DNA of 17,601 nucleotides from a virus. Taxonomy: Duplodnaviria; Heunggongvirae; Uroviricota; Caudoviricetes. Below, piece by piece: positions 329 to 17,601 of this stretch. The notes beneath the pieces were generated by a model, which did not search any database, was not told the DNA's origin, and saw only the letters and a list, made by a program, of their open reading frames with translations. Position 1 is the first letter of the stretch. Every line of letters starts with the position of its first letter. A program made the translations under genes and the position numbers. Where the stretch lies: IMG/VR virus record IMGVR_UViG_2695420739_000021. One strand, given 5' to 3'.

Positions 329-342
329 GGGATTTTTGGTCC

Positions 343-375
343 ACGAGAGTAGTTTAATTGAGTATGTAACTACAT
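343..375. other. Candidate att core region (attL side), with inverted repeat GTAGTT / AACTAC
   Basis: Identity between the two unit starts begins at 342/9051. Inverted repeat 349-354 / 368-373 resembles core-type integrase half-sites. Exact crossover cannot be fixed without attB. Confidence 0.3.
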
Positions 376-410
376 GATTTTAAATAGTATGCTTGATTCA
401 ACTTTTAAAC

Positions 411-434
411 CGTATAACTAAACGTATAACTAAA
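411..434. repeat. Tandem 12-bp direct repeats CGTATAACTAAA x2 (putative integrase arm-type sites, P' arm)
   Basis: Perfect tandem copies at 411-422 and 423-434; same motif occurs four times upstream of int (8858-8912). Confidence 0.45.
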
Positions 435-660
435 ATCATTTGCTGAAAAAGTGTACAATTTAAATGCGAGTTTTCCTGTGGTAAAAGCTCCAACCGTAAC
501 GATGTTCGTTATGGTTGCCTTGATGGTCTGCGTGGTCATTATGACCATTCAGGATTTGAAGGGTGACGCTTCCGACTTCCTCAAATTGAGGTTTCCGAAA
601 ATATCAGCGGGTTAGCGATTAATCTGACCATTAATTAAACTGCGAAAATTTCGTAATTAT

Positions 661-686
661 CCCGATATGGGGATCACCATATCGGG
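661..686 (-). terminator. Hairpin downstream of capsid-like gene (putative operon terminator)
   Basis: Perfect 10-bp inverted repeat CCCGATATGG / CCATATCGGG with 6-nt spacer, just 3' of the gene ending at 703; followed by AU-rich rather than a clean U-tract. Confidence 0.35.
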
Positions 687-702
687 ATTGATGCCGGAAA
701 AA

Positions 703-1629
703 TCAGCTTTTCGCCAGAACGGTGACGGCCTTATCGAGTTTTTGCCATCCGCAATAGGTGATTGCCCTGAACGCTGTAGCGTCATTCTGGAAAAGGCTAA
801 CCGTCCCTGATTCGGTTTTTATTACCGCCTCATCAGTTGGGGTTATAACCGTGGCTTCAACGTTAATAATCAGCTTTTGAGCGTCTATCAGCATCATGCG
901 ATCCGCCTGTTCGCTCACAATTACCGGTATTCTCAAAAGCTCTATCTGCCAGAACTCAGCATCAGTAAGCTGTAAGGCGTTTTCTACGGGCAAGATTAGC
1001 GACGACGTGGCAAGCGTGTTACCGTTCGCTATGTGCTTTTTGAAAAGCTCTATGAAGTTTTCGGCCTCATCAGCACCATTAAGCACGCCCTCAGGGGATA
1101 CGCCCGCCACCTCCTGGTCACTGGAAAGAAATTTTTTATCTATTTCTTTCACCGATTCCGATGTGATCAAGTCTCTGATCGCTGAATTGGTACCAGGGGT
1201 GCTAAATTTGATTAGCTCGTTATTCAGCATCACAATAGCGCCAAGTTTGCACAGTTTTAGCGCACTTTCGTTTACTTCTCCCTCTTTGACAGGGATTTCT
1301 TCGGCTTCTTTAAGCCATTTACTACCCTTGCCTGATATTGACTGCAATTTTGCGCCAAACGGAAGATTCAGCGCGCTGCTGATTAGCTTGCCTGGTACAG
1401 ACTGCGAAAAAATATACTCGCCAAGCTCTCTTACTATCGGCTCTGCCACCAGCGACGGCATATTATCCGTAGTCATTCCGGCAACAATGGATTTTTCAAG
1501 AAATTTCGATACTGCCGGATCATTTTTTTTCGTCATTTCAATTGCGTCTGCATGGCTGAATTTACACGATGTAAGCACGCTGGCGGCGCGAACTGCCGAC
1601 ACGCCTTTCATGTTTTTAGAAATCATCAT
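703..1629 (-). CDS. HK97-fold major capsid protein-like (308 aa, no delta/scaffold domain)
   Basis: ATGATG start with AGGAGG about 8 nt upstream. Segment KLGAIVMLNNELIKF...EVAGVSPEGVLNGA resembles the conserved HK97-family capsid motif. Last gene of the terS operon. Assignment is from memory, not a search. Confidence 0.5.
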   Translation of the reverse strand: MMISKNMKGVSAVRAASVLTSCKFSHADAIEMTKKNDPAVSKFLEKSIVAGMTTDNMPSLVAEPIVRELGEYIFSQSVPGKLISSALNLPFGAKLQSISGKGSKWLKEAEEIPVKEGEVNESALKLCKLGAIVMLNNELIKFSTPGTNSAIRDLITSESVKEIDKKFLSSDQEVAGVSPEGVLNGADEAENFIELFKKHIANGNTLATSSLILPVENALQLTDAEFWQIELLRIPVIVSEQADRMMLIDAQKLIINVEATVITPTDEAVIKTESGTVSLFQNDATAFRAITYCGWQKLDKAVTVLAKS

Positions 1630-1777
1630 CTTCTTCCTCCTGGTAACATGGGGTTAGGGTTTCGTGAAAATATGGCATCAGAACAGCGGCAGCCTGTAAC
1701 CGTATTTCGGTTGGCTGCTGCTTGTCGTTCATGATTTCCGTGAGTACATCAATAGGGTCTGTGATGTATTCGCTCAT
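1616..1777 (-). CDS. Hypothetical small protein (53 aa) with acidic C-terminal tail
   Basis: ATG at 1777, 11 nt after terS stop; MSEYITDPIDVLTEIMNDKQQPTEIRLQAAAVLMPYFHETLTPCYQEEEDDDF; overlaps capsid start by 14 nt. Not in ORF track (under length cutoff). Confidence 0.35.
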   Translation of the reverse strand: MSEYITDPIDVLTEIMNDKQQPTEIRLQAAAVLMPYFHETLTPCYQEEEDDDF

Positions 1778-1788
1778 AGTTCGCTACC

Positions 1789-2277
1789 TCAGTGTTTTAA
1801 GCCAGTTGGTGGCTTAGGGATGGGGAACCGATTTGAGGAGACATTAGCGGCATTGAGTTTTTTAACCTCTTTTTTCCCAATGCTGCCGATCTTGCGGTGG
1901 GTGAACTGGGCCAGCTTAAACGCGGCATCTAAAGCCAGTTTTGGATCTGTGTCCATGTTGTCAATCAGTATCCTGCCCATTGCTTTGATGGGGTCGGGTA
2001 GGCCGTTATCCATCATCTCAATGGTGTTAATTGATGCCCGTTCCGGTGTAACTTTTTCGGTAACTTTCTTTGTAACTTTTTTCGGTTTTGTAACCTGAAA
2101 AGTTACATCAGAAGTTACAGCCTTAAGATACTTTTTCACCTCCGGATCATTGGATAGCTGCCAGCCTTTAACCCTTGCAGTCTTTTCGCTGTATCCCGCA
2201 TGTATCGCGGCTTCCGTTGGATTTGTGCCCTTTGATAACGCATCAGCAAACCGCTTTTTTTTGGTCGTTAATGCCAT
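1789..2277 (-). CDS. terS: Terminase small subunit (N-terminal HTH type)
   Basis: Internal ATG (MALTTKKKRFADALSKGTNPTEAAIHAGYSEKTARVKGWQL...) matches the TerS DNA-binding N-terminus. The track's longer 208-aa start is an unlikely N-terminal extension. Confidence 0.7.
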   Translation of the reverse strand: MALTTKKKRFADALSKGTNPTEAAIHAGYSEKTARVKGWQLSNDPEVKKYLKAVTSDVTFQVTKPKKVTKKVTEKVTPERASINTIEMMDNGLPDPIKAMGRILIDNMDTDPKLALDAAFKLAQFTHRKIGSIGKKEVKKLNAANVSSNRFPIPKPPTGLKH

Positions 2278-2323
2278 GCAAAAACCTCGTTTTGAGGGGG
2301 TGTAACTTTTCGTGTAACTTTTT
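2048..2323. repeat. Cluster of GTAAC(T)TTT repeats inside and just upstream of terS (candidate pac site)
   Basis: Direct copies at about 2048, 2060, 2072, 2090, 2302, 2313 and inverted AGTTAC at about 2101 and 2113. Two copies lie upstream of the terS start codon, so not purely a coding-repeat effect. Confidence 0.35.
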
Positions 2324-2404
2324 TGAAAAGCAAAATTTTCTATGAATGAGACTGGGGGCGGTGTCCAGGGCGATCGACTTTCCGGCCGGAACACTCCCCC
2401 CCTG

Positions 2405-2566
2405 TCATTGCTCACCGAGTAACGAGATCAGGCCTTCAACTTCATCACTCAGCTTGTTTATTCGTGTCTCAAGCTCTGCGATCTTTTCCATCAATGGCGC
2501 TATGGTGTCTCTTGTTTCCTCGCCAATGGCTTTAATGATGCTTGCCTCGCGTTCTGTGATAGCCAT
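2405..2566 (-). CDS. Hypothetical small coiled-coil protein (53 aa)
   Basis: ATG 3 nt after the stop of the preceding 64-aa gene; MAITEREASIIKAIGEETRDTIAPLMEKIAELETRINKLSDEVEGLISLLGEQ. Not in ORF track. Confidence 0.3.
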   Translation of the reverse strand: MAITEREASIIKAIGEETRDTIAPLMEKIAELETRINKLSDEVEGLISLLGEQ

Positions 2567-2569
2567 TGT

Positions 2570-2764
2570 TTACGCCTCACTTGTTGCAATGCCCAGGCGT
2601 TCGCGTAACAGTACGCGCGCAAGATGCCCTATTGTTGGTGTTGCCGCCCTGCCGTAGATACCTGATTCATTCATCCGGCGCACAATATCGAACTGCAACT
2701 TTTTAAGCTCGTTAAGGATTTCATGATCAATCATCACGGTAGCGCTTTGCTTTATCTCTTCCAC
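2570..2764 (-). CDS. Hypothetical small protein (64 aa), first gene of packaging operon; possible DNA-binding
   Basis: GTG start at 2764 with AGGAG 8 nt upstream; sits after an AT-rich promoter-like region and the terminator of the preceding unit. Confidence 0.4.
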   Translation of the reverse strand: MEEIKQSATVMIDHEILNELKKLQFDIVRRMNESGIYGRAATPTIGHLARVLLRERLGIATSEA

Positions 2765-2852
2765 TTTGTTTTCTCCTGATACTTATCATTGCATAACCAG
2801 TATTTTCGATAGATTATCATTAATTAACCATATTTGAAGATATATGAGATCG

Positions 2853-2876
2853 AAAAAAAGCCGGATTGCTCCGGCT
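2853..2876 (-). terminator. Intrinsic terminator after the 81-aa gene
   Basis: Minus-strand hairpin GCCGGAGCAATCCGGC followed by U7 (plus strand: A-run 2853-2859, hairpin 2860-2875). Confidence 0.6.
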
Positions 2877-2894
2877 ATGTGCTCACTTCTTCGG

Positions 2895-3140
2895 TTATTC
2901 TCCAGCGCTTTTAACGTTGATGGTTGTTACCTGTTCCGCTTCGGCAATCTCCCGTTCTGTCAGCGTGGCAAAGTTTGCCGCCGCTGTGGTCATGAATGCG
3001 CTTATCAGTTCGGGATGCTCCTTCGCGTATCCTTCCCCCGCGTGGCGGTCTATCGTTCTGATTGCCACCTTTAAGGAAAGCTCTGTCATGTCTAACGCTT
3101 TATATTTTGGCGCTGTCTTATCTCTGGTTTTTCTGTTCAT
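2895..3140 (-). CDS. Hypothetical protein (81 aa), origin-adjacent
   Basis: ATG at 3140 directly abutting the iteron array; followed by the intrinsic terminator. Confidence 0.35.
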   Translation of the reverse strand: MNRKTRDKTAPKYKALDMTELSLKVAIRTIDRHAGEGYAKEHPELISAFMTTAAANFATLTEREIAEAEQVTTINVKSAGE

Positions 3141-3345
3141 TCCCCACTACTCCCCACTTTTGCTCCCCACTTTTTGAAATTACCCACCGTCTCCCCACCT
3201 CTTTTTTTTGTGATTCTAACGTTATGTTTTTCAATATGTTTTTTACTCCCCACTTTTTTGGGTATATACAGGTGGGAAAGTGGGTAATTATGTTTCAATT
3301 TTGTTAAATTCCCCACTCCCCCCACTTTTACTCCCCACTTTTTAC
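3141..3345. repeat. Replication origin candidate: iterons (C)TCCCCACTTTT plus AT-rich segment
   Basis: At least 8 direct copies (3141, 3150, 3163, 3191, 3245, 3310, 3319, 3331), 2 inverted (GTGGGAAAGTGGGTA at 3272-3286), and AT-rich stretch 3201-3245. Directly 3' of the rep gene. Confidence 0.6.
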
Positions 3346-4675
3346 AGCGGGCGCACGTCATCACCGTCAATAACGATTACGCCATCATTTTCCAGCTTGT
3401 ACAGCCAGCGCCGGAAGTGCTTCATCTCATACCCCAGCTTTTTCATATCGTCGCGGAGAAGGGCGATAGTGCACGCCTCCCCGTGTGCTGTTCGTGTTCT
3501 GATGCACTGCCATAGCGCGGCGTGATTCTCCGTCTTGTTCCCTGCCTCCTCGATGCGCTCCAGTTCAACGGGAGGGCGCGGCTTATCCACCACCACCAGC
3601 GACGTGATTAACTCCCCGTCAGCGTCGGTAAAAAGCTCCACCACGCGTAAGTCATATGCTGCTTCTTTGAGTTCCTCCGCGTCCTTCATTTTGGTACATG
3701 AGATAACCAGCGCTTCGCTGCCTGCGTCCTCCCTGCGTATCCGGTATTCGGCGTCCAGTGATGCACGAAATGCACTGGAACCACGCGCCCCCTTTGTTTC
3801 ATCCTTGCCGGAATGGTGAACCACCAGCACCGTTGCCCCTGTGCGCCGTTTCAGTTCGTCACACCCACGGATAAACGCCCCCATATCACGGGAATCATTT
3901 TCATCATTGCCGCCAAAGCAGCGCGCCAGCGTATCCAGAATAATCATTCGAACCGGTTTACCCGTTTCCCGTTCCACCTGACGGGCAGCGATAACCATTT
4001 CACGTGCACAACCTCCCAGGCTTTTACACGACGCGGAACACCTATACCGCCTTCACCAACCACATAGAGAACCGCACCATGTGCAACCCTGCGGCCTCCC
4101 CACTGGCGACCAGTGGCAACATGGCACGCCCACGATCCGGCAAGGAATGATTTATAGGACCCGCTAGCCCCGTATATGCTGCATAGCGATACCGCCGGAA
4201 TAATCCCCTTAACCACGTAATCCAGTTGCGTGTCGTATCCGGTAGATCCAACGCTCATCGGTAGCGTGGTTTTTCGCTGGTGGTTTTTTTCTTCCGCCGG
4301 CTCTTTCCCGCGCACCCGTTCCAGGTATTCGCGCCAGTTCTCCCGCATATGGCTGTGCATCCCTTCGGGGTAATAATTCGCATCAGTTACACCCGCCGCC
4401 GCCAGCTTGTGCGCAATGGCATTAATATTTGATGGCCTGATGTGGCCTGCCTTGTACAGCCGGACACAATAGCGCCCCTCGTCGATGATTCTCAGGTCTG
4501 CCAGTTCATCCAGTTGATCATCAGCCAGCACAACGGGAGGCACATTATCGCCAGCCAGTCGCCCGTCCTGTTCCTGCCACTGTTTCGCATGTGCCCAGGC
4601 ATCACTACCCGCAAAAATAATGACTTCGGTCATCTTGTCGTAAGGCTGTTTTTTTAAGTTCGGTGCGCTTTTCAT
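3342..4675 (-). pseudogene. Disrupted replication protein (AAA_25/RepA-like), split by 67-bp deletion
   Basis: Copy 2 has one 466-aa ORF; copy 1 is split into 3944..4675 (N-terminal, Walker A GASGSYKSF, frameshifted tail) and 3342..3998 (C-terminal, Walker B MIILD). Deletion at about 3999-4001. Confidence 0.7.
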
Positions 4676-4971
4676 TTCTTGCCCCTGAATCCGTTAATCA
4701 TGGTTTTCAGCTTCTGGATGTTTGCCCGTGCCCTGGCGTTGCTGGTGGGCACGTTATGCGGCGCGGTCTGTACCAGAGAAAAATCACGCCGGAACTGATA
4801 AACAGGCATCACGCAATCATATTCGTAACCTTCACGGCGGTAAGTTACGCACCGTCCCGCCACGCCCTTAATCATTACCGTGCCGCCGTACTGGTCGCGG
4901 TAAATATCACCGCGCGTAAATTTAGGGTGAGTGTTGCCACTGGCAGTTAAGCCAGAATATTTAAGTTTCAT
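4672..4971 (-). CDS. Hypothetical protein (99 aa), translationally coupled to rep
   Basis: ATG at 4971 with GGAG upstream; stop overlaps rep start (ATGA). Confidence 0.4.
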   Translation of the reverse strand: MKLKYSGLTASGNTHPKFTRGDIYRDQYGGTVMIKGVAGRCVTYRREGYEYDCVMPVYQFRRDFSLVQTAPHNVPTSNARARANIQKLKTMINGFRGKK

Positions 4972-4976
4972 TATTT

Positions 4977-5210
4977 TTATTCTCCGGTGTGCTGTTCGTT
5001 ATATCTGTCGTGCAATGTCTCTATTTCCTGCAACTCATTTATTACAGGCTCAAGAAGCGTTATTAATGCCGTGACAATTCTTGATTTTTGTTTGTCGCGT
5101 TCATTGTCGCCAAGTGTTTCAAGCCATATGCGCAATATTTCGTACATACCTTCAGCGTAAGCAAGGGCACTAAATGCGCGGTCTATTGTTTCGTGGTAAA
5201 TATCACGCAT
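4977..5210 (-). CDS. Small acidic helical protein (77 aa)
   Basis: ATG at 5210; net negative charge; overlaps stop of the upstream gene (TAATATG). Confidence 0.4.
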   Translation of the reverse strand: MRDIYHETIDRAFSALAYAEGMYEILRIWLETLGDNERDKQKSRIVTALITLLEPVINELQEIETLHDRYNEQHTGE

Positions 5211-5211
5211 A

Positions 5212-5433
5212 TTAATCCCCGTCCGTTGTTTTTCTTAAAACAGCTTCTGTCACGAAATCAGCATAGTTAGCGGCAATATCAAGAATATTTAGCCCTGTAT
5301 CTCTGTGCTCATCAGTGCAAAGAAAGAAAAAAGCCACCCGCATAATTTCAGATATTGACGAAAGCGCATCAGCCGCATCATCAGGAACGCCGGAAAATTC
5401 TTGTTTCAGGGAATTAAAACGATCATCACGCAT
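5212..5433 (-). CDS. Small acidic protein (73 aa), paralog of the next gene (PDDAADAL motif)
   Basis: Start MRDDRF with a G8 run as ribosome-binding site; overlaps the upstream gene (ATGCGTGA). Confidence 0.4.
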   Translation of the reverse strand: MRDDRFNSLKQEFSGVPDDAADALSSISEIMRVAFFFLCTDEHRDTGLNILDIAANYADFVTEAVLRKTTDGD

Positions 5434-5647
5434 AACCCCCCCCATTTTCACAATCAGCAACAAGAATATTTTTAGCGTCATTCAGCGACCGCGTTGCGAT
5501 GTATCGGATACATTCCAGGGCGAACTGTGTCCGGTCTTTCTGTTCTTCTCCCTGCGCAAGCTCTGCAGTGCATTCAATATCGATAAGCGCGTGCATCAGC
5601 GTAGTGAGCGCGTCGGCTGCTGCGTCCGGTGTGGTTTTATTGCACAT
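5426..5647 (-). CDS. Small acidic protein (73 aa), paralog (TPDAAADAL motif)
   Basis: Start MCNKTT with AGGAGG 7 nt upstream; overlaps the Icd-like stop. Confidence 0.4.
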   Translation of the reverse strand: MCNKTTPDAAADALTTLMHALIDIECTAELAQGEEQKDRTQFALECIRYIATRSLNDAKNILVADCENGGGYA

Positions 5648-6197
5648 GGCACACCTCCTGACGAATACGGGCGGCGAATACAGCAACACAACCGGACGGG
5701 CAACGGCTACGCGCTTCGCGTTCCGTCCAGGCGGTTACGTGGATGATTTGATGTTCTGACGCGCCAAAGATGATAAAGCGCCAGAGAAAGGCGGTTTGAG
5801 AATGTACAAGGGTAGGGATAGTAGCCATGTTGGCAGCCTCCTCAGTGTGGTTAAGATAACCGCCACCGGAAACGCCAATTTCGCTGGTGGCGGACTGTAC
5901 AGGGTTGGCGTAACCGGACACTGAAGAAACCGGCGCGGATTGCTCCGCCCCCGTACAGCCCACCATTGATAAGGTGTGACTATGCGGCACAAAAAAACAC
6001 GCGGGGCGCGTGTTATGCGCTTCAGTTTTGCCCAGGACGCCAATCCCGGCACCCGTTTTATGAGGTGCGCGGGAATCATAGCTATTTTCGACACTGGCGA
6101 TCAACTGGTTTTTTTCTCCGATATTCAGGGCCAGAAAACGCCACACAAAGGCCGTTTGTGTGTGTACAAGGTGTGGTATATGATTTACGGCAACCAT
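5637..6197 (-). CDS. Icd-like (Ash-family) protein, tandem two-domain reading frame; internal start at 5828 gives a 63-aa Icd-like product
   Basis: Two paralogous segments share HLVH(T/S)QTAF(V/L)WRF; distal one ends ...TEREARSR...VFAARIRQEV, like P4-type Icd-like proteins. No stop between them. GAGGAGG precedes the internal ATG at 5828; GGAG precedes ATG at 6197. Confidence 0.45.
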   Translation of the reverse strand: MVAVNHIPHLVHTQTAFVWRFLALNIGEKNQLIASVENSYDSRAPHKTGAGIGVLGKTEAHNTRPACFFVPHSHTLSMVGCTGAEQSAPVSSVSGYANPVQSATSEIGVSGGGYLNHTEEAANMATIPTLVHSQTAFLWRFIIFGASEHQIIHVTAWTEREARSRCPSGCVAVFAARIRQEVCHVQ

Positions 6198-6285
6198 AAC
6201 GGCTCCTAGTTTACGTTGTTGGTTAGACGCCCCGTATGTGTTCCCAGCACTGCGGGGCGTTGATTTTTGTGTAATGGCAAGTACA

Positions 6286-6329
6286 ATGGTAATTACCATG
6301 TAGGTATAGTAATGAAGGGTAATTACCAT
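6286..6329. promoter_or_regulatory. Paired palindromic operators in divergent promoter region
   Basis: Perfect 14-bp palindrome ATGGTAATTACCAT (6286-6299) and 12-bp GGTAATTACCAT (6318-6329), centres 30 bp apart; second overlaps the RHH start codon. Possible TATAGT -10 at 6305-6310. Confidence 0.5.
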
Positions 6330-6501
6330 GTCAACACCATTAGAAAAACGTTCGCCTCCATACCAAATGCGATTACCGGAAGACTTCAGAGCGCAGCTAG
6401 AAGAAGCAGCTAAGGCCGATGGCGACACATCTTTAGCCACTTGGATTAAACGCGTTCTCCGCAAAGAATTACAGCAACGCGGCATAGAACCCAAAGGATA
6501 A
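6328..6501 (+). CDS. Ribbon-helix-helix (Arc/CopG-like) DNA-binding protein, 57 aa; putative element repressor
   Basis: MSTPLEKRSPPYQMRLPEDFRAQLEEAAKADGDTSLATWIKRVLRKELQQRGIEPKG fits the Arc-type RHH pattern. Divergent from the Icd/rep operon. Not in ORF track. Confidence 0.5.
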   Translation: MSTPLEKRSPPYQMRLPEDFRAQLEEAAKADGDTSLATWIKRVLRKELQQRGIEPKG

Positions 6502-6543
6502 AAACTATCAGCGCCGTGGTGTGAGGTATTACGGCGCATTGCT

Positions 6544-6732
6544 ATGCAGGACAACACAATGACCGATAAAGAATTGACCAAAACATTATCACCGGCACGG
6601 AAAAGACGGCGCAGAAAGATAGAGCATGAATCAGAAAGATTCGCGCCATGTGCTTTTGCCCTTGAGCAATTCCTTAAAGAGTACAGGGAAAAGCGCTCAT
6701 TGCAGGTATGGCAACGAACTGAACCAGACTGA
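6544..6732 (+). CDS. Hypothetical basic small protein (62 aa)
   Basis: ORF between RHH gene and the plus-strand terminator; weak ribosome-binding site; arginine-rich stretch KRRRRK. Confidence 0.25.
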   Translation: MQDNTMTDKELTKTLSPARKRRRRKIEHESERFAPCAFALEQFLKEYREKRSLQVWQRTEPD

Positions 6733-6827
6733 TTGCATTGCCCACCAGCCTGATAGCGGCTATCATCCCCGTGCTTATGTTTGGGATCACATACACATAA
6801 GGCGCAGCGGGTTAATTGTTCAGAAAG

Positions 6828-6854
6828 GCGGCTCCATATCGGGGCCGCTTTTTT
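6828..6854 (+). terminator. Intrinsic terminator at convergence of RHH unit and alpA
   Basis: Stem GCGGCTCC / GGGGCCGC (one G-U pair), 5-nt loop, then T6. Confidence 0.55.
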
Positions 6855-7243: not shown

Positions 7244-7254
7244 TTCCAGGATTG

Positions 7255-10986: not shown

Positions 10987-11113
10987 GCAAAAACCTCGTT
11001 TTGAGGGGGTGTAACTTTTCGTGTAACTTTTTTGAAAAGCAAAATTTTCTATGAATGAGACTGGGGGCGGTGTCCAGGGCGATCGACTTTCCGGCCGGAA
11101 CACTCCCCCCCTG

Positions 11114-11275
11114 TCATTGCTCACCGAGTAACGAGATCAGGCCTTCAACTTCATCACTCAGCTTGTTTATTCGTGTCTCAAGCTCTGCGATCTTTTCCAT
11201 CAATGGCGCTATGGTGTCTCTTGTTTCCTCGCCAATGGCTTTAATGATGCTTGCCTCGCGTTCTGTGATAGCCAT
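11114..11275 (-). CDS. Hypothetical coiled-coil protein, 53 aa (copy 2)
   Basis: Copy of 2405..2566. Confidence 0.3.
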   Translation of the reverse strand: MAITEREASIIKAIGEETRDTIAPLMEKIAELETRINKLSDEVEGLISLLGEQ

Positions 11276-11278
11276 TGT

Positions 11279-11473
11279 TTACGCCTCACTTGTTGCAATG
11301 CCCAGGCGTTCGCGTAACAGTACGCGCGCAAGATGCCCTATTGTTGGTGTTGCCGCCCTGCCGTAGATACCTGATTCATTCATCCGGCGCACAATATCGA
11401 ACTGCAACTTTTTAAGCTCGTTAAGGATTTCATGATCAATCATCACGGTAGCGCTTTGCTTTATCTCTTCCAC
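11279..11473 (-). CDS. Hypothetical small protein, 64 aa (copy 2)
   Basis: Identical translation to 2570..2764. Confidence 0.4.
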   Translation of the reverse strand: MEEIKQSATVMIDHEILNELKKLQFDIVRRMNESGIYGRAATPTIGHLARVLLRERLGIATSEA

Positions 11474-11603
11474 TTTGTTTTCTCCTGATACTTATCATTG
11501 CATAACCAGTATTTTCGATAGATTATCATTAATTAACCATATTTGAAGATATATGAGATCGAAAAAAAGCCGGATTGCTCCGGCTATGTGCTCACTTCTT
11601 CGG

Positions 11604-11849
11604 TTATTCTCCAGCGCTTTTAACGTTGATGGTTGTTACCTGTTCCGCTTCGGCAATCTCCCGTTCTGTCAGCGTGGCAAAGTTTGCCGCCGCTGTGGTC
11701 ATGAATGCGCTTATCAGTTCGGGATGCTCCTTCGCGTATCCTTCCCCCGCGTGGCGGTCTATCGTTCTGATTGCCACCTTTAAGGAAAGCTCTGTCATGT
11801 CTAACGCTTTATATTTTGGCGCTGTCTTATCTCTGGTTTTTCTGTTCAT
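11604..11849 (-). CDS. Hypothetical origin-adjacent protein, 81 aa (copy 2)
   Basis: Identical translation to 2895..3140. Confidence 0.35.
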   Translation of the reverse strand: MNRKTRDKTAPKYKALDMTELSLKVAIRTIDRHAGEGYAKEHPELISAFMTTAAANFATLTEREIAEAEQVTTINVKSAGE

Positions 11850-12054
11850 TCCCCACTACTCCCCACTTTTGCTCCCCACTTTTTGAAATTACCCACCGTC
11901 TCCCCACCTCTTTTTTTTGTGATTCTAACGTTATGTTTTTCAATATGTTTTTTACTCCCCACTTTTTTGGGTATATACAGGTGGGAAAGTGGGTAATTAT
12001 GTTTCAATTTTGTTAAATTCCCCACTCCCCCCACTTTTACTCCCCACTTTTTAC
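11850..12054. repeat. Replication origin iterons (copy 2)
   Basis: Same TCCCCACTTTT iteron array as 3141..3345. Confidence 0.6.
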
Positions 12055-13451
12055 AGCGGGCGCACGTCATCACCGTCAATAACGATTACGCCATCATTTT
12101 CCAGCTTGTACAGCCAGCGCCGGAAGTGCTTCATCTCATACCCCAGCTTTTTCATATCGTCGCGGAGAAGGGCGATAGTGCACGCCTCCCCGTGTGCTGT
12201 TCGTGTTCTGATGCACTGCCATAGCGCGGCGTGATTCTCCGTCTTGTTCCCTGCCTCCTCGATGCGCTCCAGTTCAACGGGAGGGCGCGGCTTATCCACC
12301 ACCACCAGCGACGTGATTAACTCCCCGTCAGCGTCGGTAAAAAGCTCCACCACGCGTAAGTCATATGCTGCTTCTTTGAGTTCCTCCGCGTCCTTCATTT
12401 TGGTACATGAGATAACCAGCGCTTCGCTGCCTGCGTCCTCCCTGCGTATCCGGTATTCGGCGTCCAGTGATGCACGAAATGCACTGGAACCACGCGCCCC
12501 CTTTGTTTCATCCTTGCCGGAATGGTGAACCACCAGCACCGTTGCCCCTGTGCGCCGTTTCAGTTCGTCACACCCACGGATAAACGCCCCCATATCACGG
12601 GAATCATTTTCATCATTGCCGCCAAAGCAGCGCGCCAGCGTATCCAGAATAATCATTCGAACCGGTTTACCCGTTTCCCGTTCCACCTGACGGGCAGCGA
12701 TAACCATTTCCTCAACATCAAGCGGGGCAGCCGGAAAGATGGGACGGTTTACCAGATACAGATTTTTCACCTGCTCACCGTGCACAACCTCCCAGGCTTT
12801 TACACGACGCGGAACGCCGATACCGCCTTCACCAACCACATAGAGAACAGCGCCATGCGCCACCCTGCGGCCTCCCCACTGGCGGCCCGTGGAAACGTGA
12901 CACGCCCACGAACCCGCAAGGAACGATTTATATGAACCGCTCGCCCCGTATATGCTGCACAGCGATACCGCCGGAATAATCCCCTTAACCACGTAATCAA
13001 GTTGTGTGTCGTATCCGGCAGATCCCACGCTCATTGGTAGCGTGGTTTTTCGCTGGTGGTGTTTTTCTTCCCCTGGCTTTTTCCCCCGCTCCCGTTCCAG
13101 ATATTCGCGCCAGTTCTCCCGCTTCTGGCTGTGCATCCCTTCGGGGTAATAATTCGCATCAGTTACACCCGCCGCCGCCAGCTTGTGCGCAATGGCATTA
13201 ATATTTGATGGCCTGATGTGGCCTGCCTTGTACAGCCGGACACAATAGCGCCCCTCGTCGATGATTCTCAGGTCTGCCAGTTCATCCAGTTGATCATCAG
13301 CCAGCACAACGGGAGGCACATTATCGCCAGCCAGTCGCCCGTCCTGTTCCTGCCACTGTTTCGCATGTGCCCAGGCATCACTACCCGCAAAAATAATGAC
13401 TTCGGTCATCTTGTCGTAAGGCTGTTTTTTTAAGTTCGGTGCGCTTTTCAT
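12051..13451 (-). CDS. Replication protein, AAA_25/RepA-DnaB-like ATPase with C-terminal winged-helix region (466 aa, intact)
   Basis: Single ORF with Walker A (GASGSYKSF), Walker B (VRMIILDTLARCFGG), VLVVHHSGKDETKGARGSSA motif and basic C-terminal region; ATG at 13451; origin immediately 3'. Confidence 0.75.
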   Translation of the reverse strand: MKSAPNLKKQPYDKMTEVIIFAGSDAWAHAKQWQEQDGRLAGDNVPPVVLADDQLDELADLRIIDEGRYCVRLYKAGHIRPSNINAIAHKLAAAGVTDANYYPEGMHSQKRENWREYLERERGKKPGEEKHHQRKTTLPMSVGSAGYDTQLDYVVKGIIPAVSLCSIYGASGSYKSFLAGSWACHVSTGRQWGGRRVAHGAVLYVVGEGGIGVPRRVKAWEVVHGEQVKNLYLVNRPIFPAAPLDVEEMVIAARQVERETGKPVRMIILDTLARCFGGNDENDSRDMGAFIRGCDELKRRTGATVLVVHHSGKDETKGARGSSAFRASLDAEYRIRREDAGSEALVISCTKMKDAEELKEAAYDLRVVELFTDADGELITSLVVVDKPRPPVELERIEEAGNKTENHAALWQCIRTRTAHGEACTIALLRDDMKKLGYEMKHFRRWLYKLENDGVIVIDGDDVRPL

Positions 13452-13747
13452 TTCTTGCCCCTGAATCCGTTAAACATGGTTTTCAGCTTCTGGATGTTTG
13501 CCCGTGCCCTGGCGTTGCTGGTGGGCACGTTATGCGGCGCGGTCTGTACCAGAGAAAAATCACGCCGGAACTGATAAACAGGCATCACGCAATCATATTC
13601 GTAACCTTCACGGCGGTAAGTTACGCACCGTCCCGCCACGCCCTTAATCATTACCGTGCCGCCGTACTGGTCGCGGTAAATATCACCGCGCGTAAATTTA
13701 GGGTGAGTGTTGCCACTGGCAGTTAAGCCAGAATATTTAAGTTTCAT
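13448..13747 (-). CDS. Hypothetical protein, 99 aa, coupled to rep (copy 2)
   Basis: Copy of 4672..4971 with one substitution (I to F). Confidence 0.4.
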   Translation of the reverse strand: MKLKYSGLTASGNTHPKFTRGDIYRDQYGGTVMIKGVAGRCVTYRREGYEYDCVMPVYQFRRDFSLVQTAPHNVPTSNARARANIQKLKTMFNGFRGKK

Positions 13748-13752
13748 TATTT

Positions 13753-13986
13753 TTATTCTCCGGTGTGCTGTTCGTTATATCTGTCGTGCAATGTCTCTAT
13801 TTCCTGCAACTCATTTATTACAGGCTCAAGAAGCGTTATTAATGCCGTGACAATTCTTGATTTTTGTTTGTCGCGTTCATTGTCGCCAAGTGTTTCAAGC
13901 CATATGCGCAATATTTCGTACATACCTTCAGCGTAAGCAAGGGCACTAAATGCGCGGTCTATTGTTTCGTGGTAAATATCACGCAT
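13753..13986 (-). CDS. Small acidic helical protein, 77 aa (copy 2)
   Basis: Identical translation to 4977..5210. Confidence 0.4.
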   Translation of the reverse strand: MRDIYHETIDRAFSALAYAEGMYEILRIWLETLGDNERDKQKSRIVTALITLLEPVINELQEIETLHDRYNEQHTGE

Positions 13987-13987
13987 A

Positions 13988-14209
13988 TTAATCCCCGTCC
14001 GTTGTTTTTCTTAAAACAGCTTCTGTCACGAAATCAGCATAGTTAGCGGCAATATCAAGAATATTTAGCCCTGTATCTCTGTGCTCATCAGTGCAAAGAA
14101 AGAAAAAAGCCACCCGCATAATTTCAGATATTGACGAAAGCGCATCAGCCGCATCATCAGGAACGCCGGAAAATTCTTGTTTCAGGGAATTAAAACGATC
14201 ATCACGCAT
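13988..14209 (-). CDS. Small acidic protein, 73 aa (copy 2)
   Basis: Copy of 5212..5433. Confidence 0.4.
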   Translation of the reverse strand: MRDDRFNSLKQEFSGVPDDAADALSSISEIMRVAFFFLCTDEHRDTGLNILDIAANYADFVTEAVLRKTTDGD

Positions 14210-14423
14210 AACCCCCCCCATTTTCACAATCAGCAACAAGAATATTTTTAGCGTCATTCAGCGACCGCGTTGCGATGTATCGGATACATTCCAGGGCGAA
14301 CTGTGTCCGGTCTTTCTGTTCTTCTCCCTGCGCAAGCTCTGCAGTGCATTCAATATCGATAAGCGCGTGCATCAGCGTAGTGAGCGCGTCGGCTGCTGCG
14401 TCCGGTGTGGTTTTATTGCACAT
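14202..14423 (-). CDS. Small acidic protein, 73 aa (copy 2)
   Basis: Copy of 5426..5647. Confidence 0.4.
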   Translation of the reverse strand: MCNKTTPDAAADALTTLMHALIDIECTAELAQGEEQKDRTQFALECIRYIATRSLNDAKNILVADCENGGGYA

Positions 14424-14973
14424 GGCACACCTCCTGACGAATACGGGCGGCGAATACAGCAACACAACCGGACGGGCAACGGCTACGCGCTTCGCGTTCC
14501 GTCCAGGCGGTTACGTGGATGATTTGATGTTCTGACGCGCCAAAGATGATAAAGCGCCAGAGAAAGGCGGTTTGAGAATGTACAAGGGTAGGGATAGTAG
14601 CCATGTTGGCAGCCTCCTCAGTGTGGTTAAGATAACCGCCACCGGAAACGCCAATTTCGCTGGTGGCGGACTGTACAGGGTTGGCGTAACCGGACACTGA
14701 AGAAACCGGCGCGGATTGCTCCGCCCCCGTACAGCCCACCATTGATAAGGTGTGACTATGCGGCACAAAAAAACACGCGGGGCGCGTGTTATGCGCTTCA
14801 GTTTTGCCCAGGACGCCAATCCCGGCACCCGTTTTATGAGGTGCGCGGGAATCATAGCTATTTTCGACACTGGCGATCAACTGGTTTTTTTCTCCGATAT
14901 TCAGGGCCAGAAAACGCCACACAAAGGCCGTTTGTGTGTGTACAAGGTGTGGTATATGATTTACGGCAACCAT
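14413..14973 (-). CDS. Icd-like (Ash-family) tandem two-domain protein (copy 2)
   Basis: Copy of 5637..6197; internal start at 14604. Confidence 0.45.
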   Translation of the reverse strand: MVAVNHIPHLVHTQTAFVWRFLALNIGEKNQLIASVENSYDSRAPHKTGAGIGVLGKTEAHNTRPACFFVPHSHTLSMVGCTGAEQSAPVSSVSGYANPVQSATSEIGVSGGGYLNHTEEAANMATIPTLVHSQTAFLWRFIIFGASEHQIIHVTAWTEREARSRCPSGCVAVFAARIRQEVCHVQ

Positions 14974-15061
14974 AACGGCTCCTAGTTTACGTTGTTGGTT
15001 AGACGCCCCGTATGTGTTCCCAGCACTGCGGGGCGTTGATTTTTGTGTAATGGCAAGTACA

Positions 15062-15105
15062 ATGGTAATTACCATGTAGGTATAGTAATGAAGGGTAATT
15101 ACCAT
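15062..15105. promoter_or_regulatory. Paired palindromic operators (copy 2)
   Basis: Copy of 6286..6329. Confidence 0.5.
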
Positions 15106-15277
15106 GTCAACACCATTAGAAAAACGTTCGCCTCCATACCAAATGCGATTACCGGAAGACTTCAGAGCGCAGCTAGAAGAAGCAGCTAAGGCCGATGGCG
15201 ACACATCTTTAGCCACTTGGATTAAACGCGTTCTCCGCAAAGAATTACAGCAACGCGGCATAGAACCCAAAGGATAA
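15104..15277 (+). CDS. Ribbon-helix-helix DNA-binding protein (copy 2)
   Basis: Copy of 6328..6501; ATG confirmed at 15104. Confidence 0.5.
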   Translation: MSTPLEKRSPPYQMRLPEDFRAQLEEAAKADGDTSLATWIKRVLRKELQQRGIEPKG

Positions 15278-15319
15278 AAACTATCAGCGCCGTGGTGTGA
15301 GGTATTACGGCGCATTGCT

Positions 15320-15508
15320 ATGCAGGACAACACAATGACCGATAAAGAATTGACCAAAACATTATCACCGGCACGGAAAAGACGGCGCAGAAAGATAGAG
15401 CATGAATCAGAAAGATTCGCGCCATGTGCTTTTGCCCTTGAGCAATTCCTTAAAGAGTACAGGGAAAAGCGCTCATTGCAGGTATGGCAACGAACTGAAC
15501 CAGACTGA
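15320..15508 (+). CDS. Hypothetical basic small protein, 62 aa (copy 2)
   Basis: Copy of 6544..6732. Confidence 0.25.
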   Translation: MQDNTMTDKELTKTLSPARKRRRRKIEHESERFAPCAFALEQFLKEYREKRSLQVWQRTEPD

Positions 15509-15656
15509 TTGCATTGCCCACCAGCCTGATAGCGGCTATCATCCCCGTGCTTATGTTTGGGATCACATACACATAAGGCGCAGCGGGTTAATTGTTCAGA
15601 AAGGCGGCTCCATATCGGGGCCGCTTTTTTCGTGTTTGTCATATCTGTGATACCCG

Positions 15657-15863
15657 TTAAGCAGCCGTTCCGCGTGCTTCCTCTTCGCGTTCTTTCTGCC
15701 AGGACAACACATCATCCTCATACCATCCGCGACGGCGTAAACCAACGCGAAAACCCTGCGGAAATTCTCCGGCGTTGATCATGCTTTGCAGCGTGCTGTC
15801 TGCCTTGATGTGGATAATTTTTTTTACTTCCTGGCGAAAGATAATTTTTCTGATTGCTTCCAT
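15657..15863 (-). CDS. alpA: AlpA-family regulator (copy 2)
   Basis: Identical translation to 6881..7087. Confidence 0.75.
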   Translation of the reverse strand: MEAIRKIIFRQEVKKIIHIKADSTLQSMINAGEFPQGFRVGLRRRGWYEDDVLSWQKEREEEARGTAA

Positions 15864-16030
15864 CGTGATTTACCTTGTGAATCCGGTGTATTCCGGTGAC
15901 AAATACGGTAAATCATCGGATATGGGTAAAAACAGTTCCCACCGTTTTTAAACGGTATACACCGTTTTTTATATTGATGATTTGAAATGGAATTATAAAA
16001 AAAGCGGCATTTCTGCCGCTTCCAGGATTG

Positions 16031-16282
16031 TTACCGCCATTTTTTGGGCCTGCCTCCGATCTTCATAGATGCCGGACGTACGACCTTATCAATACTTACC
16101 GCCAGATTTCTGGAAGCGCCACGGGATACCAGAAAATCTACTACCTGTTTTTTTGATGGGGCCGTCGTTCTGTCCTCCGGATCGTAGGTTGACCAAAATT
16201 CATGCTGAACCATCAGGGCCAGTTGCAGCCCGTCGCAATTGCATCTGATATTTTTTTGCATCTTAACGGTTTCATGTTTCAC
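16031..16282 (-). CDS. Hypothetical int-linked small protein, 83 aa (copy 2)
   Basis: Identical translation to 7255..7506. Confidence 0.4.
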   Translation of the reverse strand: MKHETVKMQKNIRCNCDGLQLALMVQHEFWSTYDPEDRTTAPSKKQVVDFLVSRGASRNLAVSIDKVVRPASMKIGGRPKKWR

Positions 16283-16359
16283 GGCCTTGTCGTTAAATTT
16301 GATGCAATTATACGACGGTTTTACATGGTTTTCGTAGTTTTTACTGGTTTTCTGTACAG

Positions 16360-17601
16360 CTACACGGCTCGGATACCCCTTTTACCACTGGCGAGGGTTA
16401 CGCCCGTCGCCGCAGCCTCGACAAATTCGCCCCACCAGCGCATCAGCACGATGCGTTTTTCTATGTAGTTGCTCCGGTTGTATGCCCGTCTAACTTCGTT
16501 GGTGTCGACGTGGGCAAGTGCCGCCTCTATTACGTCCGGCTCGAATCCTTCCTCGTTCGCTGCTGTGCTGAATATGGCGCGTAATCCATGAGACACCAGC
16601 ACGCCAGCGAATCCCATACGCCGCAATGCTGCGTTAGCTGTCTGGCTGTTCATCGGCTGCTGTGGGTCTTTCAGACTTGGGAAAACGTAATTGCGGTGGT
16701 GGCTGATTGGTTTCATGGCCTCCAGCACCGCCATAGCCTGACCGGAAAGCGGGATAACGTGATCCCTGCGCATCTTCATGCGTCCGGCAGGTATCGTCCA
16801 TTGCTTCGCGTCCAGGTTGATTTCATCCCACCGCGTTGATGACGCTTCGGCGGGACGGGTTACGGTCAGTAACTGCCATTCAATCAGTAATCTGGTCTGC
16901 CGTTCTGTTGCCGATACTGATAAAGCCTGCATAAGCTCGGGCAGCTGTTCGGGGCGGATTGTTGGCATATGTTTTTTTACAGGTGAGGGAAACGCCTTAC
17001 GCACATTCATAGCCGGATTGGCATCAATCAGCCCACTGTTGGCGGCGTAATCCATTACCTCATTAACGCGCTGTAAAACCCGCTTGAGTGTTTCCAGGTT
17101 GCCGCGCTCCTTGATGGGGGTAAGCACTTCAACGAACCTTCGGGCGGTGAGGGTATCTATTGGCGTGTTGCCGATGAACGGGAATACATATTTATCCAGC
17201 GAACGCCAGATGTCTTTAATCGTGTTGGGGGCCAGATTCTGGCTGATTTTCACCTGGTACCATGCCGCCGCCACATTTTCGAACGTGTTCCCTTGTCTTC
17301 GGGCCTCTGTCTCTCTTTTTTGCCTCTCGTGGTCCTGCGGGTCAGTTCCGGCACTGATTAACGTCCTGTACTCGCTACGGCGTTTTCTGGCATCAGCCAG
17401 GGAAACATCTTCAAGCGATCCAAAACTCAGCAATATTCTTTTTTTGTCCGATGGTCGGTAGTAGGAAAATCTCCAGAGTTTTGATCCAGACGGTTTGACC
17501 AGGAGAAAAAGCCCTCCGCCGTCCTGCAGGGTGTACTCCTTTTGCGCTGGTCTGGCTGCTTTGATCTGCACTGTGGTTAATGGGTGTGTTTTTCTCGCCA
17601 T
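16360..17601 (-). CDS. int: Tyrosine integrase, P4-type (copy 2); start codon is the last 3 nt of the window
   Basis: Identical translation to 7584..8825. Confidence 0.85.
   Translation of the reverse strand: MARKTHPLTTVQIKAARPAQKEYTLQDGGGLFLLVKPSGSKLWRFSYYRPSDKKRILLSFGSLEDVSLADARKRRSEYRTLISAGTDPQDHERQKRETEARRQGNTFENVAAAWYQVKISQNLAPNTIKDIWRSLDKYVFPFIGNTPIDTLTARRFVEVLTPIKERGNLETLKRVLQRVNEVMDYAANSGLIDANPAMNVRKAFPSPVKKHMPTIRPEQLPELMQALSVSATERQTRLLIEWQLLTVTRPAEASSTRWDEINLDAKQWTIPAGRMKMRRDHVIPLSGQAMAVLEAMKPISHHRNYVFPSLKDPQQPMNSQTANAALRRMGFAGVLVSHGLRAIFSTAANEEGFEPDVIEAALAHVDTNEVRRAYNRSNYIEKRIVLMRWWGEFVEAAATGVTLASGKRGIRAV

Follow-up and report, generated by a model that had tools for sequence, protein, structure and literature searches.

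When nearly the same satellite element stands twice in a row in assembled DNA, two questions arise: does the repeat belong to a chromosome or to the assembly, and, if it is real, how did more than one unit come to be there? Both are raised by IMG/VR record IMGVR_UViG_2695420739_000021, a stretch of 17,601 nucleotides that is referred to below as the window.

Two units of one PICI

Self-BLAST and MAFFT alignment confirm that nearly identical units sit head-to-tail in the window, as two copies of one PICI:

350-9041, minus strand: PICI copy A, element-specific sequence, replicase gene disrupted
9059-17601, minus strand: PICI copy B, replicase intact, truncated at the int start codon, where the window stops

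Everything from position 342 on recurs at +8709 and, past a 67-nt indel, at +8776, exactly the offsets given in a preliminary description of this DNA. That description had also read the window as an int-alpA-rep-terS-capsid unit present twice in direct orientation; here, too, it holds, the repeat being confirmed by self-BLAST and MAFFT and the genes by Pfam and PHROGs. The unit length with one core is 8709 bp. In the same alignments, segments 335-4001 and 9042-12710 match without a mismatch and with a single 2-nt gap in the core, and segments 4000-8825 and 12775-17601 with 33 mismatches. The complete list of differences between the copies comprises a GG that is absent from the left core after position 341, 67 nt lost from copy A at 4001/4002 (copy B 12711-12777), 32 substitutions that all fall within 4002-4349, and a lone further SNP at 4698/13474. 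Since 25 of the 33 differences occupy codon position 3 and the sequence contains no Ns, they represent natural allelic variation rather than consensus noise. The window stops at position 17601, the ATG of the copy B integrase gene, short of the right-hand end of the array; hence, two copies are a minimum.

Gene content

The unit is a canonical five-component "Type A" E. coli PICI, matching the SatelliteFinder definition of a class that is found in E. coli in 97% of cases and has a median size of 9.5 kb. It encodes an integrase, an AlpA-like regulator, the isrK/C4 RNAs with icd, a DUF4222 protein, a RepA-type helicase with iterons, TerS, and an HK97-like capsid protein:

703-1629, minus strand (copy B 9412-10338): HK97-like capsid homologue, 308 aa, the PICI 'capsid morphogenesis' component
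1789-2277, minus strand (copy B 10498-10986): small terminase subunit, TerS, 162 aa from ATG
3131-3343, no strand assigned (copy B 11840-12052): putative replication origin
3342-4675, minus strand: RepA-type AAA_25 helicase, the replicase of copy A, broken by the loss of 67 nt at 4001/4002
4672-4971, minus strand (copy B 13448-13747): DUF4222 protein, 99 aa (Pfam PF13973, 2e-23)
5883-6068, minus strand: C4 antisense RNA (5883-5970) and isrK RNA (5992-6068); copy B 14659-14746 and 14768-14844
6881-7087, minus strand (copy B 15657-15863): AlpA-like HTH regulator/excisionase, 68 aa
7584-8825, minus strand (copy B 16360-17601): tyrosine integrase, 413 aa, with an arm-DNA-binding domain

The integrase matches Pfam Arm-DNA-bind_3, Phage_int_M and Phage_integrase as well as NCBIfam NF007246 (552 bits). 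The AlpA-like protein scores under the cutoff in Pfam (AlpA, E=0.0028), matches the PHROG 'excisionase and transcriptional regulator' (2.5e-6) and is named an HTH regulator by RefSeq in the common single-copy version of the element (L001), where the capsid homologue is labelled 'phage major capsid protein'; the latter also matches Pfam PF05065 (28.8 bits, cutoff 24.2) and a major head protein PHROG. TerS is identified by Pfam Terminase_2 (9.7e-11), phrog_641 (1.4e-43) and the RefSeq annotation in L001; its ORF reaches 2415 if started from GTG. The C4/isrK region scores 77.6 and 66 bits in Rfam, both over the gathering scores, and is followed by an Icd-like coding segment (about 5658-5787), overlapped by NCBIfam Icd-like and Pfam Phage_ASH matches, a layout resembling the c4-icd arrangement of P1 immI. 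The putative origin consists of two 45-nt blocks (3131-3175 and 3299-3343) with three CCCCACT iterons apiece, directly 3' of the replicase gene, a placement that fits the PICI ori rule of Fillol-Salom 2018.

Sister copies that are not equivalent

The copies are sisters, but they are not equivalent. In copy A, the replicase gene is split into a 243-aa ORF (3944-4675) and a 218-aa ORF (3342-3998), with the frame shifting after residue 224; in copy B, it encodes an intact protein of 466 aa (12051-13451). The deletion responsible adjoins a further feature:

4002-4349, minus strand: recombination tract in copy A, 348 bp, with 32 substitutions relative to copy B

This tract agrees at 347/347 positions with rep as found in a paralogous PICI at phoQ-roxA (the allele of loci L002 and L011), and the block beside it, 4350-4700, is 100% identical in both PICI types. 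The phoQ-roxA PICI was probably the partner in a homologous exchange or copy-choice event that produced the chimera, given that the identical block adjoins the tract; in L011, these two PICI types have recombined independently. An I92F change is private to the copy B DUF4222 protein.

It had been suggested that a tandem array would double the dosage of the packaging and interference genes. Because the copy A replicase gene is frameshifted and chimeric with the paralogous allele, the dosage of functional replicase is not doubled; only the non-replicase genes would be present at double dose. Copy A retains the iteron origin, int, the AlpA-like gene, TerS and the capsid genes and so should be mobilisable with the copy B replicase acting in trans.

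The chromosomal site

The insertion site is the 3' end of tRNA-Pro, a gene flanked by yejO and yejM. Two features bear on it:

1-334, plus strand: chromosomal flank, non-repeated; 3' remnant of a yejO-type autotransporter pseudogene and the native terminator hairpin of tRNA-Pro
8956-8997, minus strand: element-supplied intrinsic terminator (-23.7 kcal/mol, z-score -7.0), then a U-run

Positions 1-341 are 100% identical to E. coli 536, LF82 and NRG 857C, where tRNA-Pro directly adjoins; the empty attB, a search for which had been proposed earlier, is thus present in B2 strains with an identical flank. The native hairpin (about 295-326, minus-strand reading) has a z-score of -5.65, and in single-copy insertions the element-supplied terminator takes over from this displaced native one.

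The inter-copy junction

What lies between the two units? The relevant sites are:

335-349, no strand assigned: outer (distal) att core, damaged, TTTGGTC--CACGAGAG, the 17-nt core minus GG
411-433, plus strand: P' arm of copy A, with the arm-type site CGTATAACTAA twice in direct orientation
8858-8911, no strand assigned: P arm, an inverted repeat made of four arm-type sites, two per strand
9042-9058, no strand assigned: inner att core, intact, 17 nt, TTTGGTCGGCACGAGAG, the reverse complement of the tRNA-Pro 3' end CTCTCGTGCCGACCAAA
9120-9142, plus strand: P' arm belonging both to copy B and to the inner attP, again with two arm-type sites in direct orientation

The att alignment gives the order as the int-side end of copy A, the intact core, and the left end of copy B, and the inner core with its surroundings (8858-9142) makes up a complete attP (P-O-P'), so that this junction has true attP topology. 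Of the three visible boundaries, then, one is chromosome/damaged core/element, one is element/intact core/element, and one is the window end. The arm motif occurs exactly 8 times, as against 0.18 expected by chance and with none of 200 shuffles reaching 8, and only at 411-433, 8858-8911 and 9120-9142; a diverged metagenomic relative (L005) independently has the same P-O-P' layout. The preliminary description was right that arm-type repeats flank a core in an attP-type junction, whereas its core-like inverted repeat does not stand: the inverted repeat at 8858-8911 is composed of four arm-type sites and is rejected as the core, which is the tRNA-Pro segment. A secondary-site insertion in locus L014 reveals that the strand-exchange point falls within the tRNA 3' end, between CTCTCGTG and CCGACCA.

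After ordinary integration at the tRNA-Pro site, the junction to which the displaced core goes has nearly always lost 1-4 nt. The outer-core deletion begins where deletions of 1 to 4 nt begin in 9 other chromosomal contexts, and damage to the tRNA fragment has been described as PICI-specific (Mageeney et al. 2023), making the 2-nt loss typical. The intact inner core is weak evidence on how the array formed, for in at least one genome the distal core has come through ordinary integration unharmed.

Occurrence in other genomes

Hundreds of STEC-type genomes carry the element as a single copy, 99.9% identical; to this common version, copy B shows 99.94% identity (4 mismatches and 1 gap over 8.55 kb). 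No contiguous inter-copy junction occurs among 5,426 complete E. coli genomes (962 of them match the junction query in part) or in GTDB species representatives, IMG/VR, metagenome contigs, or phage and plasmid records. The arrangement is thus without an independent replicate, and the earlier statement that such arrays are uncommon holds. Still, tandems are known for PICIs and for other integrative elements: the layout is rare, yet an expected outcome of integration.

How did the array form?

The best reading, with a probability of about 0.7, is that the array is real: two or more units of one PICI stand head-to-tail at tRNA-Pro in an E. coli whose flank is of B2 type, and the window covers the left part of this array. 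Its units would derive from a single replicating PICI population and have been inserted in one transduction or induction episode. A multimeric circle might integrate via one of its attP sites, or a sister circle might enter a resident copy, either by Int at the intact tRNA-proximal core or by RecA anywhere along the 8.7 kb of homology. Each route would leave a pristine attP between the units, and all are compatible with the sequence; integration of a second copy into attL or attR, as first proposed, accounts for the attP-type junction but is only one of several routes to the same structure. Published accounts describe PICI replication as yielding concatemers and the packaging of small satellites in multimeric form.

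The same concatemers, formed after excision, suggest a rather unlikely assembly artefact, in which one integrated PICI coexisted with circular or concatemeric DNA excised upon spontaneous helper induction, and attP reads were threaded into the chromosome path. The pristine inner attP is what a circle would contain, the arrangement recurs in no collection searched, and Mageeney et al. (2023) suspected a near-identical 17-kb PICI pair of such an origin. A single integrated copy and its own circles would, however, be identical, whereas these copies are set apart by the 67 nt missing from A, by the tract of 32 substitutions that matches a natural allele exactly, and by the additional SNP, so that two physically distinct versions must have existed in the sample; moreover, the window has neither Ns nor scaffold gaps, and a combination of integrated A with episomal B would require a stable episome without a helper. 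Two sequential, independent acquisitions, the model of the preliminary description, are unlikely too, even though they are the textbook route to tandem arrays: a transduced, intact copy B would have joined a decayed resident copy A via Int at the tRNA-proximal core. This core is intact in 11/11 occupied loci where it was recovered, and the tRNA-nearest copy B is indeed the intact one, close to the widespread STEC version, with the distal copy A decayed. Against this, L001 lacks 3 SNPs and 1 indel that A and B have in common, and the two copies are otherwise identical over about 8.3 kb, which fits one source population better than two acquisitions; the inner junction also lacks the usual deletion, a weak point given the intact example noted above.

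In-situ duplication without an incoming element appears the most doubtful. Unequal exchange between sister chromosomes, by Int-mediated attL x attR recombination in trans or by replication slippage, would yield sister copies, and attL x attR exchange in particular a tandem pair with an attP-type inner junction. Yet the outer distal core has lost 2 nt of the overlap region, so that Int should recombine it poorly, and use of this damaged site would risk passing the defect to the inner junction, which is intact; cores of 15-17 nt are, in turn, too short for efficient RecA exchange.

As regards the age of the array, a perfect 8.7-kb direct repeat should be quickly lost via RecA, and the complex rep event together with the private SNP fits a very recent duplication poorly, unless both were already in an inserted multimer.

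Comparison with known systems

Single-copy Type A PICIs at tRNA-Pro, with yejO and yejM as neighbours (for example NZ_CP027387.1, 3808-3817 kb; O26, O103 and O157 genomes), have the same integrase, att core, arm sites and gene order. They differ in comprising one unit, with a STEC-type background and a 4-nt core deletion, as against at least two units, a B2-type flank, a 2-nt deletion and one chimeric, broken rep here. PICI/PICI tandems were described by Mageeney et al. (2023), simple at fis and complex at tRNA-Ile2/fis, as well as Ecl37.33.fis; a tandem was defined there by three similar att sites, and an internal attP was considered possible via homologous insertion of a circle. Like the present pair, these are two satellites head-to-tail with an internal att site, but they involve another integrase clade and target gene, and the near-identical pair among them was a suspected artefact; the present pair is homotypic, and yet its members are told apart by the rep recombination tract.

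Direct arrays built by tyrosine recombinases, with attP at the internal junctions, are also formed by islands, phages and vectors and can persist through passages. Tandem polylysogens of lambda and of CRIM plasmids are familiar examples. SGI1 arrays contain up to six copies (Doublet et al. 2008), and a general model of attL/attR re-integration has been presented (Mageeney et al. 2020). All these, however, are conjugatively mobilised islands, phages or vectors, whereas the present element is a helper-dependent satellite.

For satellites, packaging of multimers is a possible source of multi-unit DNA for array integration. P4 dimers and trimers occur in P2-size heads. EcCICFT073 is packaged in full-size lambda-type capsids, and PICMI as 8-mers; the passages that describe this mention no integrated arrays as a consequence, and multimer packaging of the present PICI is itself hypothetical. 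The present PICI resembles P4-like satellites in its AlpA-like regulator, in a tyrosine integrase that targets the 3' end of a tRNA, in an antisense RNA of C4/CI type accompanied by icd/'ash' segments, and in the damage to the displaced tRNA fragment, but it lacks Sid, Psu, Delta and an alpha-type primase and possesses, instead, a RepA-type helicase, TerS and an HK97-like capsid homologue.

Two head-to-tail copies of the element

Upon comparison of the window with itself, positions 335-4001 align with 9042-12710 with no mismatches and one 2-nt gap, and 33 mismatches separate 4000-8825 from 12775-17601; the offset between the copies is +8709 and then +8776, just as the preliminary description had it for everything from 342 onward. 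Positions 1-334 are non-repeated, and the window contains no Ns. Copy A (350-9041) and copy B (9059-17601) both lie on the minus strand and are separated by an att site that links the two element ends via the core, as is characteristic of a tandem array. Because the window ends at 17601 on the ATG of the copy B integrase, the right end of the array is outside view, and two units are a minimum. The window also starts with an ATG, its last base being exactly at the integrase start codon, so that it was seemingly cut at ORF boundaries, hiding the right-hand att site and the tRNA.

A base-by-base list of the differences between the copies contains only four kinds.

Differences of copy A from copy B
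after 341: GG absent
4001/4002 in copy A: 67-nt deletion (copy B 12711-12777)
4002-4349: 32 clustered substitutions
4698/13474: one SNP

Relative to the common single-copy version from STEC (L001), copies A and B have three SNPs and one indel in common. By this pattern they are sisters, yet not equivalent; the proposal that a full element is present twice holds for the repeat and for the gene set and not for equivalence, since the rep gene of copy A is frameshifted.

A chimeric rep gene in copy A

Up to position 3972, the rep gene of copy A carries the B-type allele, as judged at 128 informative sites; the 67-nt deletion follows, and the tract 4002-4349 then carries the allele of a paralogous PICI, which in our comparison resides between phoQ and roxA in O157/O26-type strains. 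The agreement with this allele extends to 32/32 tract sites and to 347 of the 347 positions compared. The block 4350-4700 is 100% identical in both PICI types and hence would be an ideal substrate for homologous exchange. The preponderance of third codon positions (25 of the 33 A/B differences) speaks for natural allelic variation and not for consensus error; together with the perfect match to a natural allele, it rules out sequencing or polishing noise as the source of the differences.

With the deletion, the rep frame shifts after residue 224, leaving copy A without a functional replicase; the iterons are retained. The 67-nt deletion was found in none of the genomes of the E. coli set, and an exact-protein look-up of the 243-aa rep fragment and of the DUF4222 I92F variant returned no match.

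A separate locus, L011 (GCA_012632525.1, AASXYH010000002.1 65093-86334), is a recombinant that arose independently from these two PICI types. The tRNA-Pro PICI contributes its int-side half and the phoQ-roxA PICI its late half, the two being joined within the shared replication module, and phoQ follows; the fusion implies a chromosomal rearrangement via recombination between the two PICIs.

Insertion site and attachment cores

Hundreds of complete E. coli genomes match the int side of the junction query at 100% identity, and there the match leads into a tRNA-Pro gene. The single copy in NZ_CP027387.1, which is 99.94% identical to copy B, is located between yejO and tRNA-Pro/yejM. The search for an empty attB in related genomes, suggested at the outset, was successful: the flank (1-341) is 100% identical to that of B2-type strains such as 536 and LF82, in which it directly abuts tRNA-Pro. 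At the left junction of the window, this flank, which strain 536 has unchanged at its empty attB, is followed by a damaged core.

Alignment of att sites
attB: gggattTTTGGTCGGCACGAGAGgatttgaacc
inner junction (core 9042-9058): ggcgaTTTGGTCGGCACGAGAGtagtttaatt
left junction of the window (335-349): gggattTTTGGTC--CACGAGAGtagtttaatt
tRNA-proximal junction of single copies: ggcgaTTTGGTCGGCACGAGAGgatttgaacc

From this alignment, the core comprises 14 nt at the 3' end of the tRNA-Pro gene and 3 nt downstream. The exchange point within it can be located owing to a secondary-site insertion (L014, CP077491.1 2967202-2988443), where the same PICI lies within a lambdoid prophage, with no tRNA-Pro there, flanked by the Q antiterminator gene on one side and the holin/lysozyme genes on the other; its ends are near 9780 and 18550. 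The junctions read ..gagccggag|CCGACCAAATC.. and ..CTCTCGTG|gtactacgtc..; the int-side end retains CCGACCAAATC and the distal end CTCTCGTG, which places the strand exchange by the integrase between CTCTCGTG and CCGACCA.

The distal core, at the displaced tRNA fragment, lacks 1, 2, 3 or 4 nt, always counted from the exchange point, in the nine chromosomal contexts examined (L001, L003, L006-L010, L013 and L015; L026 12050-12075 was compared as well), and the tRNA-proximal core is intact in 11 of the 11 occupied loci where it was recovered. PICI-specific "damage" to the displaced tRNA fragment has been described, with tRNA-Pro among the affected genes (Mageeney et al. 2023). That the missing length varies while the first missing base is fixed points to cleavage at one constant position, in events that were independent of each other. 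In the window, the outer left core is the 2-nt-deleted form and the inner core is intact. We considered the intact inner core as a case against Int-mediated integration of a second copy and downgraded this argument, as a normal single integration in strain Z1323HEC0108 has left the distal core intact: distal damage is frequent but not obligatory.

The inter-copy junction as attP

The motif CGTATAACTAA occurs 8 times in the whole window (0.18 occurrences expected), and only in the att arms.

Elements of the att region
8858-8911: P arm, four arm sites, two inverted and two direct
8956-8997, tRNA strand: terminator hairpin (z-score -7), between the P arm and the core
9120-9142: P' arm, two arm sites
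411-433: copy A equivalents of the P' arm, two arm sites

The inter-copy junction (8858-9142) is accordingly, by its layout, a complete P-O-P' attP with P arm, intact core and P' arm. The arm-type repeats expected on both sides of the junction are therefore present; the inverted repeat previously regarded as core-like proved to be the arm-site cluster at 8858-8911, the true core being at 9042-9058. Insertion of a single copy moves the native terminator (295-326) to the far end, and so the hairpin of the element would end the tRNA transcript.

The same arrangement is seen in an independent, diverged relative, the 2136-nt metagenome contig ERZ1034969 NODE-11656 (L005), in which the 5' end of int, four arm sites, the terminator, an intact core (777-802), the same left end TAGTTTAATTGAG and two arm sites follow one another. 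Directly after the P' arm, where the capsid gene would be, this contig has four iteron-like repeats CCTGTCCCAC. It is other cargo on the same int/att system, being either a circle or another tandem.

Gene content and classification of the unit

Each unit encodes the following features, all on the minus strand.

Features of the unit
tyrosine integrase, minus strand, 413 aa, with arm-binding domain (Arm-DNA-bind_3, Phage_int_M, Phage_integrase; NF007246, 552 bits)
83-aa ORF, minus strand
AlpA-like HTH protein, minus strand, 68 aa (HTH regulator in RefSeq)
isrK and C4 antisense RNA genes, then an Icd-like segment, minus strand
several small ORFs, minus strand
DUF4222 protein, minus strand
RepA-type helicase, minus strand, 466 aa (AAA_25, 2.6e-43; N-terminus matching PHROG primase families)
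CCCCACT iterons, two 45-nt blocks directly 3' of the helicase gene
small terminase subunit, minus strand (Terminase_2, 9.7e-11; phrog_641, 1.4e-43)
HK97-like capsid homologue, minus strand, 308 aa (Pfam Phage_capsid, 28.8 bits, cutoff 24.2)

The 466-aa replicase gene is intact in copy B only. The 68-aa protein matches Pfam AlpA weakly (E=0.0028; 17.9 bits, under the 21-bit cutoff) and the PHROG family 'excisionase and transcriptional regulator' more clearly (2.5e-6); its position next to int and its size fit a PICI regulator, with a weak sequence signal. The 308-aa protein, which scores 26.8 against TIGR01554, slightly below the 27.5 cutoff, counts by its Pfam match as a capsid-morphogenesis homologue of the PICI type. 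No tail, holin, portal, head-tail connector or lysis genes were detected among the scanned ORFs of the unit. With its size of 8.7 kb, the unit matches, by predicted gene content, the five-component Gram-negative PICI, 'Type A' of SatelliteFinder, a class with 97% of its members in E. coli (median size, 9.5 kb).

A 409-aa ORF (5637-6866 and 14413-15642, minus strand) was rejected as a real gene: it overlaps two Rfam RNAs and is represented by pseudogene fragments in the RefSeq annotation. The isrK/C4 RNAs map within it at 5883-5970, 5992-6068, 14659-14746 and 14768-14844, and its residues 263-356, which match Pfam 'Phage_ASH', cover exactly the stretch of these same-strand hits; this suggests that the 'Ash' protein family model in part represents structured RNA genes. 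The layout of the isrK/C4/Icd-like region resembles the c4-icd operon of P1 immI.

Just 3' of the capsid-like gene, at 659-688 and 9368-9397, there is a near-perfect 30-nt palindrome, ATCCCGATATGGGGATCACCATATCGGGAT, which forms a strong hairpin on folding (z-score -3.5) and is probably the terminator of the late operon; alternatively, it could be a packaging or protein-binding site.

Origin of the array

How the array and its att sites are built, that the copies are sisters and that rep is chimeric can be read from the sequence itself; we infer that a single replicating PICI population supplied more than one inserted unit. A multimer circle could have integrated through one of its attP sites; a sister circle could have entered a resident copy via Int at the intact proximal core; or it could have entered via RecA along the homology. 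Each of these routes leaves an intact attP between the units; the sequence cannot choose between them. The preliminary description had the second copy integrate into attL or attR of the first: the tandem with attP is as it anticipated, and the route is one of several. The rep chimera, in turn, would stem from exchange with the phoQ-roxA PICI, either in the donor before packaging or later in this host.

PICIs are described as replicating to concatemers, and small satellites as capable of being packaged as multimers. A further scenario is that the array derives from one packaged multimer that came from a donor with both PICIs and then integrated. In such a donor, the tRNA-Pro PICI and the phoQ-roxA PICI would co-replicate, and a concatemer would form in which one unit bears a copy-choice rep chimera; a capsid would then carry two or more units to a recipient of B2 type, where the dimer circle would integrate via one attP, the other staying intact. 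We consider this scenario unlikely, with a probability of roughly one in five. The main rival explanation is an assembly artefact in which integrated and extrachromosomal forms of the PICI were mixed. PICI/PICI tandems have been reported at fis, one near-identical pair being suspected to be an assembly artefact (Mageeney et al. 2023); in the present case, the allelic differences between the copies argue against the simple form of this explanation.

If real, the array is a natural homotypic PICI array distinguishable from an artefact by an internal marker, and it documents recombination of two co-resident PICI families inside their shared replication module. Interference with helper phages could become stronger through the additional TerS, capsid homologue and regulators; the first description had envisaged a doubled dosage of packaging and interference genes. 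If, in addition, the packaged-multimer scenario were true, transduction as multimers would be routine for small E. coli PICIs, and heteroallelic arrays could establish, with a replication-defective unit using the intact Rep of its neighbour. The analysis also yields an attP map for this integrase, with arm sites in groups of four and two, a core of 17 nt and exchange at the last 7 nt of tRNA-Pro. The current understanding of satellites is unchanged by these findings.

Relation to other satellites and tandem arrays

The contiguous inter-copy junction was found in none of 5,426 complete E. coli genomes, including the 962 that match part of the query, in line with the initial view that such arrays are uncommon. 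The 801-nt junction query had no contiguous match in phage or plasmid records; 40-, 26- and 21-mers across the core were absent from GTDB representatives, IMG/VR and metagenomes, except for contig L005; and none of the 10 distinct genomic contexts of the identical integrase was a tandem. The IMG/VR provirus L016, which shares a private SNP in a start codon, turned out to be a relative with one copy only. In PLSDB CP061244.1, positions 1-459 of the query, its int side, are matched at 100% identity; this 1.41 Mb 'plasmid' is probably a misfiled chromosome fragment. For SaPI tandems, the literature search gave no relevant report.

Five loci (L003, NZ_CP116067.1; L007; L009; L012; L013) combine an identical or near-identical integrase and att system with mosaic cargo, such as D5_N/DUF5906 primases replacing the RepA-type helicase, or a lambda E-like capsid, a decoration protein and a Nu1-type TerS replacing Terminase_2 and the HK97-like capsid. 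The wide spread of near-identical copies and the mosaic relatives may be taken as indirect signs of mobility induced by a helper phage, with excision, replication and transfer at high frequency.

As annotated, the unit falls outside two neighboring satellite definitions. Whereas a cfPICI has its own portal, protease, head-tail adaptor/connector and full head module, the unit has only TerS and one capsid homologue. With P4-like satellites it has in common the C4-type RNA, icd and 'ash' segments, but none of Sid, Psu, Delta and the alpha primase-helicase was matched, the replicase here being a RepA-type AAA_25 protein.

Re-integration into attL or attR is the general model for tandem arrays, and SGI1 arrays comprise up to six units. 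Such arrays matter in practice because software for finding satellites and mapping islands must split them; SatelliteFinder handles tandem satellites explicitly. Taken together, the element is a common, already annotated PICI, and its homotypic tandem is a rare instance of a known phenomenon.
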